Shown in pieces: positions 42,926 through 59,859 of a DNA stretch of 64,000 nucleotides. Source of the DNA: Prorocentrum cordatum (taxonomy: Eukaryota). Under the pieces are notes generated by a model that was not told the DNA's origin, searched no databases, and saw nothing but the letters and a program-made list of their open reading frames with translations. The position numbers and the translations under genes are program-made. The stretch is taken from contig CAUYUJ010000001.1 in assembly GCA_963575745.1 (NCBI GenBank), forward strand, positions 2,170,001 through 2,234,000, written 5' to 3'. How positions within the stretch are numbered: the first letter of the stretch is position 1; every line of letters begins with the position of its first letter.

Positions 42926-42947
42926 TGTGTAGCCATTCTGGTCCAAG
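42926..42947 (+). other. Relict dinoflagellate spliced leader upstream of Pho88-like paralogue 2
   Basis: GTAGCCATTCTGGTCCAAG versus GTAGCCATTTTGGCTCAAG (16/19), 85 nt before the ATG at 43033. Confidence 0.65.
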
Positions 42948-43431: not shown

Positions 43432-43965
43432 GCGTTGACGCGCCGCGTCTCGACATGTGTGTTGAGCGATGCCCGACAGAGAAAGAACAATTGCATCCAC
43501 GCTCAGTCCTGACGCCATCCTTCTCCGTTCCCTCGGGGGGACGCCGAACAAATCGAGTCTCGAGATGAGCCTGAGCAGACCCATCAAGCAACCATAAATA
43601 GCTTATCGGACCTTTCGGTCTGGGAGCCTCTTGGTAGCCTAACGGGGCAATCTTGCAGCACTCTTGGGGCCTTTTGGGCTCTCTTGGGGCCCTCGTTTGG
43701 CCCTCTGAGGGTCATCTTCGTGGTATTGGGGGCTATTTTGGAGGACATCGATCAAAGAAGGGGGCGCCAACCGCCGCGTGACAAGGATTTGCCCAGGCCC
43801 ACCCGCGCGGGGCCTGGGACAGGTCTGGCCAGTCTTAGTGCCAGCGCAGTCGGTGGTCGACCTGCACTTGCGCTGACCGCCTCCCCGCGTTCCTTCTCCC
43901 CCCCCCTCCCCCTCACCCCACCCCGTCGTGCACCCCCCTCTTCCTTCTCCTCCTCCTCCTCCTCC

Positions 43966-43999
<34 letters not shown>

Positions 44000-44014
44000 T
44001 CTCCTCCTCCTCCT

Positions 44015-44051
44015 TCCGTAGCCAGTTTGGCTCAAGCCATGATGGCTCAAG
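44015..44051 (+). other. Genomic dinoSL copy plus tandem 15-nt SL relic
   Basis: TCCGTAGCCAGTTTGGCTCAAG (21/22 to dinoSL) immediately followed by CCATGATGGCTCAAG (13/15 to SL nt 8-22). Confidence 0.93.
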
Positions 44052-45339
44052 GGATGCCGCTGTCATCGCGGCTAGTTTGCCGCGGCCGCGCCCAGCCCTT
44101 GTCTCCCGATCGCGCTTGCTCATGCCTGGGACGAATGGCGGGGGCTCCAAGCGCAGAGGTACAAAGAAGAACATGTCGTGGTGTGCTCGCCGTGCTGCTG
44201 CTAGTGCAGGTGATGGTGTTCGTGGGGATGAGGGTCCATCGACGGGAAACGACGATAGGTATCGTTCCAGCCGCGCCTACAACGATGACGAAGACGGAAT
44301 GGATCCAGGAAGTTGGGGCGCATACATGAATGGACCCCATTGACGAATTCGGTACCAAATTCAAGGTTTTCCGGGTCGAGCTCGCAAGTGTGGTTGCCAG
44401 CACAGCGAATGCAGCCGCAGGTAAAGCTGTGGACCCTGTCATGTCAGCCATCAAAGCGCTGGAGGAGGCGGCCAAGTCGGATGCGAACACTCGCAAGGCG
44501 CACGTGGAGGCGGTTTTCCGCCTTGTGATCTTCCAAGCGAAGCTGGACTCGCTTTCTGCCTAGGTGGCGGCGACCGGCTGTAGGACTGACAGTATTGCGG
44601 AAGAGCGGGCAGAGATGCGCTCACCCATAGAGGATATGCGGCGCGAGATTACTCCCGCCAACATGGCCCCGCCGCCGCCCAAGCCTCCCAGCGCCGGGCT
44701 CCACCGGGAAGCCCGCGCTATCATTATCAAGATTGTCGCGCCCACCGTGGTCAAGTAGGCGGACTTTGCATCTCACGTTGGCAAGTGGCTCAACGACGCG
44801 AAGATCGAGGGCTTCACGTTGGTGGGCGAGGAGCAGGATCGGACCTTCATAATGCAGCTCACAGGTGCAGTTGTTGTCGCTGGACGCTGTGTCGTTCAGG
44901 CTCTCGGCGCTTTTCGCCCCCCTGGCAAACGGCAGCGCGTGCGTTTTCCAGTCGCTGCGGCGTCTGGAGGTTCTACGCAAGTGCATGCGGGCTCTGACAA
45001 GAGCCCGTTTCAGATCACAGTCGACATCGTTGGGGGGATCGTTGCAATTATTCTCCGTCAGCGCTTCCACGGGGTCCGACTCTTCTTCGACAGGCAGAAT
45101 GGTTGGATCACCGAGAACTGGAGCCCGATCCTCAGGCTGGAGCCCCATGCTGGTCGCGACCCTGGCCTGTGTTTCTAGCATGATGTAGCGCTCGCCAATC
45201 GCGGTTGGACCCGCGCTGAGGCGCGGACGCGCACGGTGCACACTCTTGAACCCAATGCAGCACCAGAGATGTCTCTGCAGCGTTTTCGACGACATCGTTG
45301 CGCACGCGGCGAACGGCTGGCGCGCCCTAGAGGCCGAGG

Positions 45340-53847: not shown

Positions 53848-54240
53848 GTACGAAGTCGAACCATGCACGGGGAACGGACGTCTGAGCGATGGCGAGTGTC
53901 GTTGCTTCGAGACGCTTCGGAGGAGGAGGAGGAAAAGGAGAAGGAGGAGGAGGAGGAGGAGGAGGAGGAGGAGGAGGAGGAGGAGGAGGAGAGGCATCTC
54001 CGGTGACAAACTGAGCGCACGAAGATGAACTATGCACGGGGAACGGAAGTCCGAGCGAGGGCGAGTGTCGTTGCTTCGAGGCACTTCGGAGGGGGAGGAG
54101 GAGGAGGAGGAGGAGGAGGAGGAGGAGGAGGAGGAGGAGGGGCACCTCTGGCGACAAACTAAACGCACGAAGTCGAAAAATGCATGGGGCATGGACGTCC
54201 GATCGATGGCGAGTGTCGTTGCCACTCGCTGGATGGGGGG
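53848..54240. repeat. Tandem ~150-170 bp units each containing a (GAG)n run
   Basis: ATGCACGGGGAACGGA.GTC.GAGCGA.GGCGAGTGTCGTTGC occurs three times, the third diverged. Confidence 0.85.
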
Positions 54241-54890: not shown

Positions 54891-55342
54891 CTCCCCTCCT
54901 CCTCCTCCTCCTCCTCCTCCTCCTCCTCCTCCTCCTCCTCCTCCTCCTCTCCTCCTCCTCCCCTCCTCCCCCTCCTCCTCCTCCTCCTCCTCCTCCTCCT
55001 CATCATCATCATCATCATCTTCCTCCTCCTCCTCCTCCTCCTCCTCCTCCCCCTCCTCCTCCCCCTTCTCCACCTCCTCCTCGGTTTAACCGAACCTGCA
55101 GGGTTGGCCCTTTCCCGAATCCTTGCTTCGGTGCGGATCTTCTGCGCGGCTCGTCTCCGTCGTCGTCGTTGTTGTTGTCGGCATCGTCGTGGTGGTGGTG
55201 CGTCATGCTCTGCTCGGGACTTGTTGCCCTTATGCAATGACCACCACCCACGACCCCGCCCACCCTGATCTTCGTTCTCGATCCCCCAAATCCTCCTCGA
55301 TCCTCCTCCTCCTCTTCCTCCTCCTCGTCCTCTTCCTCCTCC

Positions 55343-55364
55343 TTCGTAGCCACTGTGGCTCAAG
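55343..55364 (+). other. Genomic dinoSL copy
   Basis: TTCGTAGCCACTGTGGCTCAAG (19/22), directly after a CCT-rich tract. Confidence 0.8.
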
Positions 55365-57220
55365 GTGTAACGTCCGCCCCGAAATGATAGTTTGACTGCA
55401 GCGAAGGGGTTGGCTCGAAGGCTCCAGCCCGAAGACTGCACATTCACCCACGTCCCCTACCTGAGCTTCAGGCCTGGCAGGTCCCAGCTTCCAGCCGTTC
55501 ATCTCTCAGTGCCGCTGTGTGCGTGTGTCCGCCGACCAGCTCGCGCAGATCCTGGCAGGCATCAGTGGAATCAACGGCCGTCTCCATGGTGTGGACCATT
55601 CGCTGAAAGATGTCGCCGAGATGAAGGCGATCGCACAGCATGACGAGAAACTTGAAGCAATGCAGGACAAGCTAAACCAGCATCAGCAGAAGACCGACGA
55701 GGCGATCGCGAGCCTTGCCCAGCACGAAGTAATTCTCCGCCTGCAGGAGAAGTGTGACACGGCAGCTGCCCAGATTCAGAGTCTGACGAGTCCGGACACT
55801 AGTTTGGCTGCTTCGGGAGGCCCTAGTGGCTGGAGTTCGGTCGGTGTTCGCTCCAAGCGTGCGCGTAATGGCGTTCCTCGTGCCAGCCCGACCGTCGTCA
55901 TCGACGACGCTGAGCCCGTCTCCAACCCTTGTCGCCTGTTCATCGGAGGTTTACCAGACCAGTGCTGGCCAAGATCACGACCAATTTCGCAGAGTCCCTG
56001 CGCTCGAGTCCGGTGCTGCCGAACGTTTCCACGTCCACGGTGAAGACCCACAACATTAATAAGTCCTTCAGCAATGACTTCGATGAGCAGATGCATGTTC
56101 GCTCGTTCGTCGACACGTCACGGAGCGTGGCGTTATTTGGACGGACGTGAAGCACTTGTATCAGGTGCCCATGCGGGCTCGATTGGGCGCCTCTTCTGGC
56201 GTTAGACGTCGCAACAAGGCGCTTGGGCTTCTGTGGACCAAGGTTCACGAACAGATGCGCGAGAATGGGATCTGGCGTCCCACGATGAAGCTCGGCAGCC
56301 AGGGCTTCGAATAATTCCTTTACCCTATCGAGAATGAAGACTGCACGGTGCTGCACAACATCAAGGAACTCGAGCAGGACCAGTTTTAGATCGGGGCGCA
56401 CTACAGCGAACTGCTCATCCTCGGCATCAATGAGGAGCAGACTGACAAGATCAGCCCGGCCATCGCGCTAGAGGCTTCCCTTGCTGTCTTAGAGTGTCTC
56501 TGCGGCTGCGACGATGAGATTTGGGATGGTGCACGGGGCGCGCTGCACCGACTCCTCTTCGCATCGTTGAGGCACCATGCAGCACGTGCAGCAGTTCCAG
56601 GAGTGGTTCGTCTTCCCTCTCGCCGCCCTCTGGAGGATCCGATGTCTCTGGAATGGATTTCTTTGGTCTCAGTTCGCACTTGCCCAAGCAGGCCTGTTCA
56701 ATTGTCCTTTGGGCCGCCTGGTCTATATACGGTGTTACTTTCGCCCCGCAAGCCTCGCGTAAGCAGGCGCATGGAATGGCTGACTGCGCATTGTTCCAGA
56801 CGTGACATTGCCCGCGTTCAGGAGGCTCGCGGGTCGGAGGCCCACCTGGAGTGCGCCGGCAAGGAAGCGCGCCAAACTTCCGGTGTCGGCGCGTTCCTCG
56901 ACTCCTCTTCTTCCGGCGGCTGTCTCGCGTTCGCTCATCCTCAGCTCCAGGCGTCATTCGCGCGCGCATCGCCGCCATCTCGAGCGCGGGCGCACCAGTA
57001 GCTCAGTTTATTCATGTGCAATACCAAGGAGCGTTTGCAAATCGGTGCGCCGCGCGGGCCGCGCCTGCGGGGCGTGCGGCGGAGCTCGCTATGGGGCCGC
57101 GAAGCGCGTGATGGGGCGTGCTGGATCGGGCGCGGGTACGCCGCGCGGACTGCGCCGCCGGCGCCTCTCTGCGGAGCCCCCCGCGGGGCCGCGAAGCGCG
57201 GGAAGTGCGCCCCGGAACCG
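55343..57220 (+). mobile_element. SL-headed decayed element with a LINE ORF1-like coiled-coil region, 3' truncated
   Basis: Coiled-coil ADQLAQILAGI...DEKLEAMQDKLNQHQQKTDEAIASL, then NPCRLFIGGLP (RRM-like). It is frameshifted, has no RT and ends at (GAT)n. Confidence 0.5.
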
Positions 57221-57467
57221 ATGGCGATGATGATGATGACGATGATGCTATTTGTCGCAAGTAAAATCATAACGATGAGAATTATCTGAGAATGCCAACA
57301 ATGATAATGATTCCCCATCAGAGCTTGCTTCTGTAGGGGTCCTAGCGGATATAAAGCTGAGGTGAGGTGAGCGGCCGATTTCGGTGGCCGGGGCCGGGTG
57401 CCCGGGTGCCCGGGGGTGCCTTGGTGGCCGATTTCGGTGGCCGGGCCAGGGTGCCCGGGGGCGCCCA

Positions 57468-57702
57468 ATAGCCCACTAGCCCAGTAGCCCTATAGCCCTA
57501 TAGCCGCATAGCCCTATAGCCCTCTAGCCCTACAGCTTTATATCCCTATAGCCCTAATAGCCTTATATCCCTATAGCCCCATAGCCCATTTAGCTCTATA
57601 GCTCCATAGCCCTATGGCCCTATAGGTCGCAGTCCTATAGCCCGATAGCCCTACAGCCCGATAGCCGTATAGCCCAATAGCCCTATAGCCCTATAGCCCT
57701 AA
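57468..57702. repeat. (TATAGCCC)n octamer satellite
   Basis: Read directly from the sequence. Confidence 0.93.
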
Positions 57703-59859
57703 CAAAAATATGATTGGGGCTTATCTCCGGTATCATATAATGATAGCGTGAATTGTAAGAATACGAATATGACTAATCATTTTGTAGACTAATATGAACA
57801 ACAATAATAGCACTAGTGATGATGACGATGATGAGGAGGAGGGCGATGATGATGATGTTGAGTTTGATGATCGCGGCTACGATGGCGGTGAAAATGATGG
57901 CGATGATGACGCCGATGACGCGGGCGGCGGCGACGAGGAAGGCAGAGATTGGGACGGGGGGGAAGGGGGAGAGGGAAGAGGAGGAGAGGAGCGACGCGGG
58001 TCGCTGTCCCTTCAACACGAGGCCCCAACACCAAAGGATCATTGAGAAACGAATAACAACGCTTTCGAAACCGTAGATGGGGCGCAGAAGACAGTTCGGT
58101 AACGATCACGAGCGGGGAGTTAACATTGAGCCGGTGCACCAAGGCGCCGGGAAATCAAATGACAAAAGGAAGGCGGAACAGGAAATTCCGAGTTGGACGA
58201 GGACGATCCTGCCCAGTTGGACGCGAACCTCTGGCATTTTTTGATGGCGAGCTTAAAAGGGAAATCCGCGGGGGAGCGCGAGTGTCCACGTGAAGGAGAC
58301 GTCTTGATGGTTCATCGTTAAAAATGAGCGTTGTGGCCGTGCAGCTTGAGCACTGGAGCGCGCCAGTAGAAGCCCTGGGAAGAAGTGCGGGTCTAGTTAT
58401 TCGTTGCCGCTGCCATTCAGGGCTACAGCCTCGAGGGTCATCATGGCCCGTGCAGGCGATTGGTTTGCCGACTAGCAATGACGTTGCTTGAATACCGCAG
58501 GGTCGTTCAACACCGGCACCTAACAAACGCGCTTCGTCATGCGCGAGGATTGGGCATTGGGGGAAATGGCTGGACGCCGATGCGATGAGCAATGGCGCAA
58601 TGGCAACTGGCCAGGCTGACGAAGACGACCGTGGAAACTTGGGGCACGAATGGAGACGTCGCAGGTTCCCCTTGCGAGGCAGGCACTTGGCGGTCCCGGA
58701 ACGTGGAAAATATAGCCGGGAACGGCAACGCGAACGAAACAAGCTAAGACAGGTGCGGAAGAAGTTTGGCGCTGATCAGTTAGAGGGAGTTTTACAAGTG
58801 CGGCGAGAAGGATCACGTCGCAGCCCGCAATCCCAAAAACGCCAGCGATGTCACCGCCGGCCATGGCGGCAGGAGGCCCAGGGGAGCTGCGCAGCTGTCA
58901 GGACAACCTCTGCCAGGGCCGGGATACCATCGCGTCGAGGTGGGCGAACTAACTGACGCGCGCGGAGCCGTGGACAACCACCATTGGGGCCGGATGAAAT
59001 GGCCGAGGAGTGGAGGACGCAGCGCCAGGCGACAAGGAGGAGGAACAAAGAGGCAAGGTAAGATGTCAAGAAGAAGCACGCATCACAGTAGCGCGGCGTT
59101 GTTGACTCGGACCACGGAACCGGCCCGGACAACCGAATTACGGAGCGCATCGAGCAGGGCGGAAGTTGGACGCACAAAAAAGCGCCGAACATGCGAATTT
59201 GCCGAGACGGGCGGATCCAACAATAAAGTCAGCGACATGGACAGACTAGTTGTCGGAGTGTCTCCAGGGGCCCACAGCGTTGTTGGACGTCAAACAAATG
59301 AAAACCCACTTCCCTGACATACCCGAGGAGATTTCCAAGAGCGGCAAACCCTGCAGCGCAGCTGTGCAGGGCAGTCATCAGGGACCGTAGGCAACGGGTC
59401 ATTGAGCGCGCCCATCCACGTGGCTGAAATTAAAGGGGGGCCCGGGCCTGCTCGTGAAATGGTCAGAGCGGGGAATCGCAGAGGCTAATTTCGAGACGAC
59501 GATGCGCGACCCTGCAGGTGCGTCGAGCACGAGGCACTTGGGCAAAATGCGATTACTATCGAGACATTGGCAAGCTCCTGTTCACTATCTGGGCCCCGAG
59601 AAGGGCTGCGAGTCATGAGGTTAGCGCGGAGAGATGCGGGGATCTTCCCAGGCAGGGGGCTTTCATGGCGGACCTGTTCTACTGCGCCCGATTGAGCCCG
59701 CGAGCGCCAGTTAAACATTCTGGCGCCCTGCCTGATTCTGGAGGGCGACCAAGAGGGCAAGGATGCGGGGAAGCGAGCGAAGTGGCGCGAAGGATGCCCA
59801 TGTGGCTGGAGGCCCAGGTGCCCAAAATAGCTACATGTGACCTTGGACCAAGCGGAATA

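Follow-up and report, generated by a model that had tools for sequence, protein, structure and literature searches.

The DNA examined here is a stretch of 64,000 nucleotides (nt) of the dinoflagellate Prorocentrum cordatum (assembly GCA_963575745.1, contig CAUYUJ010000001.1, positions 2,170,001 to 2,234,000 of the forward strand), referred to below as the window; all coordinates are counted within it. Its guanine-plus-cytosine (GC) content of 55-70% and abundant simple repeats are those of eukaryote-type DNA. On the plus strand, 55343-57043 carries what we read as a dead copy of a long interspersed nuclear element (LINE). It comprises a relic of the dinoflagellate spliced leader (SL; DinoSL), a stretch resembling a 5′ untranslated region (UTR), the remnant of a first open reading frame (ORF1) and the beginning of a second (ORF2) with similarity to endonucleases of the apurinic/apyrimidinic (APE) type, and it directly abuts a simple repeat at its 5′ end.

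The leader relic lies at 55343-55364 (+) and marks the 5′ end of a retro-copied RNA. It matches the 22-nt DinoSL consensus DCCGTAGCCATTTTGGCTCAAG, as given in the available part of PMC2606063, at 19 of 22 positions, with three differences when the variable first base is counted. A search of the whole window with the 21-mer DinoSL core, allowing up to three mismatches, returned two sites, 44016-44036 and 55344-55364, where shuffled sequences lead us to expect 0.01; a 16-mer search added only 44036-44051, which is a second relic stacked on the first of these sites, and a weak match at 42932. Immediately upstream of the 55-kb relic, with no spacer, is a (TCC)n tract of about 17 units (55291-55342, +), which we read as 5′ flank or target. 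Tandem Repeats Finder reports it as a period-3 array at 55291-55343 (TCC/CCT, 17.3 copies, 80% matches) that is continuous into the relic. The preliminary description of this locus had claimed a 19/22 leader copy fused to a CCT-rich tract, and the two features do indeed abut. The same program finds a (CTC)n microsatellite of 65 copies and about 190 nt at 54891-55082 (+), which may be one repeat tract with the junction (TCC)n, 208 nt lying between them. This 208-nt segment is unique sequence between the two CCT-type tracts of 190 nt and 52 nt (54891-55343) and contains runs of (GTC)n, (GTT)n and (GTG)n. Similar pairs of CCT tracts occur elsewhere in the window (16116-16237/16388-16494 and 7919-7936/8186-8237), and such pairs may be marks of small insertions into one repeat.

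The next two bases after the relic are GT, the same as where the intron begins in SL RNA genes. Nevertheless, the sequence 3′ of it is without the intron and T-run typical of 27 environmental SL RNA genes, which come from the metagenome survey described below; here and throughout, survey counts are counts among the matches listed. An Rfam scan of 53-59 kb found no family. The leader at 55 kb is not part of an SL RNA gene.

Downstream of the relic, three-frame translation delimits a 5′ UTR-like stretch at 55365-55524 (+) and then the ORF1 remnant at 55525-56470 (+), in which translation, homology and the predicted fold of a relative point to a helical N-terminal part, the motif RLFIGG, and RNA recognition motif (RRM)-like and C-terminal parts. 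The reading path begins in frame 0 at about 55525, changes after 55953 to frame 2, and from about 56120 to about 56470 is in frame 1. Its frame-0 part ends in CRLFIGGL, with RLFIGG encoded at 55933-55950. Frameshifts lie near 55954, where one base is lost, and near 56120, and the frame is interrupted by the stops TAA (56312-56314) and TAG (56387-56389); the decayed RLFIGG frame that had been described behind the leader is thus present. Three-frame translation shows no in-frame ATG ahead of the region of homology, and the GTG at 55525 may be a mutated ORF1 start codon.

Using the frame-1 read-through, with X at stops, as a query against 1.84 billion representatives (E ≤ 1e-3), we obtained 14 matches, of which 13 align to the ORF1 part and the fourteenth, P0006, to the APE part. 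The 13 ORF1 relatives form one family of about 100-330 residues whose full-length members end where the homology in the window ends, and tblastn places them co-linearly over 55570-56464, spanning both frameshifts. P0011, the closest long relative, shares the helical N-terminus and the motif CRVFVGGFLRPVLAK. Where relatives are named, they are called 'unnamed protein product' and come from P. cordatum and Polarella glacialis. P. cordatum alone has at least seven members that are less than 50% identical pairwise (P0007, P0008, P0014, P0015, P0017, P0018 and P0019). Pfam gave no match on the ORF1 pieces and no family for minus-strand and flanking ORFs around the element. Judged by sequence similarity, the ORF1 remnant belongs to an unannotated dinoflagellate protein family. 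Two peculiarities of the relatives may be recorded. The gene model of P0008 fuses the N-terminal domain of a guanylate-binding protein to the ORF1 family and is probably a chimeric prediction. The closest ORF1 relatives (P0004, P0005, P0013 and P0020-P0023, 45-70% identity) bear the EukProt label of a species of Pyramimonas, a green alga, all other named relatives being dinoflagellate; the label could stem from contamination or mislabelling, or the range of hosts could be wider.

The layout of the family can be seen in an AlphaFold2 model of the relative P0017, calculated from a 13-sequence alignment (mean predicted local distance difference test score, pLDDT, 71). The model consists of a 73-residue helix (residues 66-138), a β-α-β-β-α-β domain (146-223) whose first strand is predicted to be formed by an xIGGF motif, and an α/β domain (230-316). 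Foldseek lists the human L1 ORF1p trimer (2yko_C) in its top row with an E value of 0.15. With VIA-align, L1 ORF1p (2ykp_B) reaches a Z score of 5.6 over 174 residues and covers all three parts, RRM chains reach Z 4.0-4.8 for residues 149-230, and frataxin-like chains reach Z of about 6 for the last domain. A wide structural search was swamped by coiled coils matching the long helix and was uninformative on the globular parts. The ESM Atlas returned unnamed clusters and Baculo_FP at 0.84-0.85, under the reliability line of the tool, and this candidate was rejected. Overall, the modelled fold hints at an L1-ORF1p-like layout of the ORF1 family, a likeness of architecture and not of family membership.

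A spacer of about 180 nt (56471-56652, +) leads from ORF1 to the ORF2 remnant at 56653-57043 (+), corresponding to some 130 residues from the N-terminal region of an endonuclease of the APE type. The evidence comes from tblastn, in which residues 78-206 of P0006 align to 56653-57043 with 42-54% identity (E 4e-21), and from Pfam, where P0006 passes Exo_endo_phos (PF03372) with 39.3 bits at a cut-off of 24.5; Pfam applied directly to the window fragment gave no match, and the assignment is made via P0006 only. The remnant has a frameshift near 56763 and a stop at 57002-57004, and similarity ceases at residue 206 of the 335 of P0006. P0006 itself comes from a contig of 1,483 nt on which no other relatives were found. 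When its relatives were sought, the 'longer' length class was empty and the 'near' class contained P0006 alone, a comparison with PDB sequences gave 0 matches, and its fold, predicted without an alignment, was unusable (mean pLDDT 38.6). An APE remnant some 180 nt 3′ of ORF1 on the same strand is the arrangement of a LINE. The LINE identity proposed in the preliminary description, which had overlooked the start of the APE region, therefore stands on a broader footing of ORF1 homologues, a three-part fold in a relative and the APE remnant.

Across 55343-57043 we count three frameshifts and three in-frame stops, so the copy is dead. Its 5′ end is complete and its 3′ end is cut at 57043. LINEs are usually truncated the other way round, so the 3′ part was presumably lost later. 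The extent first given for the element, 55290..57250, holds at its start and fails at its end, as similarity to LINE proteins stops at 57043. The adjoining 57044-57250, a GC-rich stretch with an internal 69-nt duplication followed by (GAT)n, is high-copy in sequencing runs and is not part of the element.

The other leader of the window, 11 kb away, stands in the same kind of junction. At 43937-44014 (+) a (CCT)n tract of 26 copies with 86% matches lies directly 5′ of an SL relic, again without a spacer. SL searches and the sequence itself show that this relic matches 21 of 22 positions and is followed by a truncated second relic of 15 nt at 44037-44051, the two together occupying 44015-44051 (+). 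The second relic begins at the internal AG of the leader. This is a known sign of repeated recycling, from which it follows that this element's RNA had been retro-copied, re-expressed, spliced in trans at the AG of the relic and copied a second time. An ORF1-like frame with two stops follows at 44330-45175, and no reverse transcriptase (RT) or APE domain was found after the relic up to 54.9 kb. The two elements are unrelated in sequence. As had been noted before, blastn finds no similarity between them; tblastx of the same region (55201-57400 against the window) likewise gave no match at the 44-kb element, and when the profile of the ORF1 family was aligned with the 44-kb ORF1-like frame, hhalign gave a probability of 0.08%.

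Sense CCT-type tracts precede 0.9% of plus-strand and 0.26% of minus-strand positions in the window, and any simple repeat precedes 2.6-3.6%. Both SL relics follow a sense CCT tract, for which the chance is about 3e-5 to 8e-5. Because two of two relics follow tracts that precede only about 0.9% of positions, we reject a chance origin of the (CCT)n|SL junction. No plus-strand CCT tract occurs 3′ of 55342 in the window. The recurrence across families that had been pointed out earlier is therefore beyond chance within the window; the general mechanism proposed along with it extrapolates from two cases here.

Exact leaders in environmental DNA offer a wider view of such junctions. Scanning metagenome contigs for the exact 21-mer leader gave at least 126 loci and 125 distinct sites with at least 24 nt of upstream sequence, of which rule-based classification assigned 27 to SL RNA genes and 23 to virus-like, AT-rich contigs and called 75 retrocopy-like. 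A simple repeat fills the 24 nt upstream at 5 (self-match ≥0.85) or 10 (≥0.80) of the 75 retrocopy-like sites, at none of the 50 SL RNA gene and virus-like sites, and at 0.5-0.8% of control positions in the same contigs. This control is too low, because contigs break at repeats, and the enrichment vanishes if the true genomic baseline is 10% or more; simple repeats account for 25% of Polarella genomes according to the available part of PMC7245778. The enrichment of simple-repeat flanks in environmental contigs is thus suggestive only. Repeats of varied motif stand beside retrocopy-like leaders, among them (TA)n, (CA)n, (TG)n, (CAT)n, (CT)n and (GGGT)n; what they share in these contigs is therefore not a high pyrimidine content. 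At 19 loci with a simple repeat before the leader, the same motif was not seen to recur downstream, where 3′ ends were probably not reached. Pfam detected no APE or RT domain within 2 kb in 103 sense ORFs after 41 retrocopy-like leaders; these ORFs yielded host-type domains and one zinc knuckle, and the long unannotated ORFs after such leaders are unrelated to one another and to the ORF1 family. At three loci (L006, L037 and L044) the exact leader is preceded by tandem palindromic units of about 20 nt (AAAGGACCCCGGGGTCCTTT-like).

At the nucleotide level the element family is old or rare here. Two contigs of sequencing run X1 cover 55366-57031 with 0 differences at a depth of about 9, and run X5 contains two pieces of 151 nt that match exactly and a single further one that differs at 18 of 125 nt (about 86% identity). 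A scan of metagenome contigs (alignment A3) gave 277 pattern matches, a scan of viral contigs gave 32, and 0 were confirmed in either. tblastn of all family proteins against the SL-bearing metagenome loci (at least 126) found no match. Runs X6 and X10, guessed to be RNA, contain no contig on 55343-57025, which is not evidence either way.

The surroundings of the element are rich in other repeats. In run X1, contigs reach a depth of up to 176 over 57317-57350, which is therefore part of a high-copy repeat. Just 3′ of the element, 57463-57701 is a satellite of about 30 copies of the 8-nt unit GCCCTATA. On the 5′ side, 53919-54222 is a 148-nt tandem duplication with runs of (GGA)n, a motif antisense to that of the CCT tracts.

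The relic, the abutting repeat, the ORF1 and APE homology, the decay and the non-random junction are best explained, with a probability of roughly 0.7, by 55343-57043 being a dead, 5′-complete and 3′-cut copy of an APE-type LINE, made from a trans-spliced RNA and with (TCC)n as its likely target. From these observations we infer trans-splicing of the element's RNA, a target preference and a later loss of the 3′ part. The family would be a dinoflagellate-specific APE-type retrotransposon of the kind lacking long terminal repeats (non-LTR), with a 5′ UTR, an ORF1 arranged like L1 ORF1p, in which a long helix precedes an RRM-like domain with RLFIGG in its first strand and an α/β C-terminal domain, and an ORF2 that starts with the endonuclease. 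A LINE copy starts where its RNA starts, and since this copy starts with a full leader, the template was most likely the element's own mature, trans-spliced and SL-capped message. Integration would have proceeded by target-primed reverse transcription, with the template copied as far as its 5′ end. The (TCC)n would most likely be the upstream half of the insertion target, and SL-capped retrocopies of this genome may in general tend to land in, or join to, sense TCC repeats. The rest of ORF2 including the RT, the tail and the downstream target would have disappeared afterwards, when a deletion or rearrangement took place at about 57044. For the formation of the junction, insertion into, or end-joining at, a TCC tract is favoured. 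We prefer such a target effect because the region already holds a TCC-type repeat and because environmental SL-flanking repeats are unrelated to the leader.

Several observations weigh against this reading. Transposase_22, which we take to be the Pfam name for the L1 ORF1p family, matched neither the window frames nor seven relatives at E values up to 1, a profile search of PDB sequences with the ORF1 family gave nothing, and the structural scores of P0017 all fall in the 'middling' range as defined by the tool itself. Three short close ORF1 relatives carry a puzzling green-alga label in EukProt. Outside the window, no contig was found on which relatives of ORF1 and of the APE part occur together. 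Run X1 contains no diverged copies with at least 80% identity, and being single-copy is unusual for a repeat family, although it would suit an old one. As already stated in the preliminary description, there is no RT: Pfam detected none when applied to 55343-58002 read through in three frames, to 15 of the 16 listed downstream ORFs of at least 130 amino acids and to 44-55 kb. A poly(A)-like or repeat tail and a target-site duplication were not seen either, although no dedicated search was run for them. The target preference is drawn from only two junctions here, made by unrelated elements, and the downstream flank that would reveal insertion within the repeat is missing. Since neither RT nor tail nor duplication was seen, the LINE call rests on the ORF1 and APE remnants. 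The copy is cut before the expected position of the RT, so this absence limits the claim for the copy and not for the family; it also means that a LINE clade cannot be assigned.

Two alternatives deny that the element is a LINE of this type. If it were the retro-pseudogene of an ordinary host gene, one would understand why it is single-copy at ≥80% identity in X1, why its relatives are named only as unnamed proteins and why no RT is found, but an endonuclease/exonuclease/phosphatase-type remnant 180 nt downstream on the same strand would be out of place, as would the three-part ORF1p layout predicted for P0017; the seven or more P. cordatum members below 50% identity are what one expects of a repeat family. 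We regard this as very improbable. The scarcely credible alternative is a site-specific LINE of the SLACS/CRE or NeSL kind sitting in an SL RNA gene, whose target would have supplied the leader. The GT after the relic would suit it, yet apart from the exon no part of an SL RNA gene is found, neither intron nor T-run, the endonuclease is of the APE type, and none of the 27 environmental SL RNA genes (0/27) has a simple repeat upstream.

Other alternatives accept the LINE and explain the leader or the repeat differently. The (CCT)n could be kept for its function, as a polypyrimidine tract that together with an AG in or at the end of the relic forms a trans-splice acceptor and allows re-expression of the copy as a source. 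The tract is indeed a long pyrimidine run that stops 6 nt short of the relic's first AG, and the second 44-kb relic is cut at exactly the internal AG of the leader, so that splicing did occur in that lineage. However, the site of a daughter is independent of that of its parent, so selection on sources cannot explain two dead copies at CCT, and the environmental SL-flanking repeats are mostly not pyrimidine tracts; we consider this quite unlikely. We hold in just as little favour a (TCC)n made during insertion by an RT that slipped and recopied the 5′ UCC of the leader, which would place a sense repeat on any SL-capped complementary DNA (cDNA). In keeping with slippage, the leader begins with TCC, the 55-kb repeat is in phase with its relic, both cases share one orientation, and purity tracks decay of the leader (86% with 1/22 changes, 80% with 3/22), a hint only at n = 2. 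The 44-kb junction is nevertheless one base out of phase, the environmental abutting repeats are unlike the first bases of the leader, and the 190-nt (CTC)n located 208 nt upstream indicates that the region held such a repeat anyway. A shade less probable again is a hard-wired leader, that is, an SL-like 5′ end transcribed from the element's own start and copied in each cycle. The TTT(T/G) of SL relics has been proposed as a promoter element, as stated in the available part of Song et al. (2017; PMC5585692). A promoter inside the relic would, however, yield RNAs lacking the first bases of the leader, yet the 55-kb relic is full length, and the stacked relic at 44 kb represents a fresh leader added over an old one. 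Somewhat better placed, though still unlikely, is the idea that the leader itself steers integration: the cDNA end complementary to the leader's initial UCC would pair with TCC repeats or be reiteratively copied into them. This would apply to any trans-spliced RNA, be it of unrelated LINE families or of host genes, and would leave a full-length copy with a sense (TCC)n|SL junction. If true, a tag of host RNA processing would act as an integration guide, and both the constant orientation and the repetition in unrelated families would be accounted for.

The survey also brought up leaders of a different kind. Exact 21-nt leaders occur in AT-rich contigs (GC 0.16-0.31; L002, L016, L017, L018, L030, L043, L045, L047, L061-L063 and others), where the leader lies about 45 nt 3′ of a AAAAATTGA-like word and just 5′ of ORFs, up to three times per contig; AAAATTGA is presumably the mimivirus-type early promoter. 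Some of these contigs are 64-118 kb long, and they encode RNase H, a PIF1-like helicase, DUF5847, Rpb2 and DNA polymerase X, which we read as a giant-virus-type gene set. The pattern suggests dinoflagellate viruses that encode the host leader in cis, of which no description was found in the literature.

Among known systems, L1 ORF2p has an N-terminal APE endonuclease and an RT. The element at 55 kb resembles L1-type LINEs in that ORF1 and APE follow each other on one strand, and its relative P0017 shows the predicted order of coiled coil, RRM-like and C-terminal parts found in human L1 ORF1p (2yko, 2ykp, 2ldy). In contrast to L1, its ORF1 family is without a sequence match to Pfam L1 ORF1 or PDB sequences and its structural scores are weak, and its 5′ end is a leader added by the host, whereas L1 has a UTR with an internal promoter. 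Kojima and Fujiwara reportedly described APE-type LINEs that target microsatellites, namely Kibi and Koshi of the Tx1 clade and Waldo and Mino of the R1 clade. In those as in both cases of the window (2/2), a LINE abuts one strand of a simple repeat in fixed orientation; unlike there, two unrelated elements share the target here, which fits a property of the target or of SL RNA as well as an enzyme specificity. SLACS, CZAR, CRE and NeSL are inserted within SL RNA genes and have an endonuclease of the restriction-like kind. A general statement to that effect on the endonuclease of such LINEs is found in the available part of PMC4640811. Here, too, a LINE stands beside spliced-leader sequence, but the element begins with the complete leader, nothing further of an SL RNA gene is left, and the nuclease is of the APE type.

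Dinoflagellates have genomes without nucleosomes that hold thousands of leader-tagged retrogenes, and Slamovits and Keeling, whose work PMC5585692 and PMC6050394 cite, are said to have described such DinoSL-relic 'recycled' processed cDNAs in 2008. As in those retrocopies, the reverse-transcribed messenger RNA at 55 kb has its 5′ end tagged with the 22-nt leader in DNA form, and the 44-kb neighbour has their classic stacked relic. The difference lies in the message that was copied, which is that of a retrotransposon here and of host genes there. The available parts of PMC5585692, PMC6050394 and PMC12014239 treat leader-tagged retrogenes as well known in dinoflagellates, and in PMC6050394, as far as that part goes, the type of element that mediates them is unknown and LTR/copia is favoured. 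We found no description of SL-headed LINEs or of a repeat|SL junction in the literature, supplements not examined. The present case contributes another LINE family, one that is unrelated and lacks annotation, and raises to two the junctions within one window; the copy is old and broken, contributes no more than this and cannot serve as a clean model. In the recurring (CCT)n|SL junction there is a concrete signature that can be counted in order to trace how and where such cDNAs integrate. A LINE copy headed by the spliced leader indicates that LINE messages share the trans-splicing and reverse-transcription route of retrogenes, and APE-type LINEs are therefore direct candidates for the retrogene machinery of dinoflagellates.

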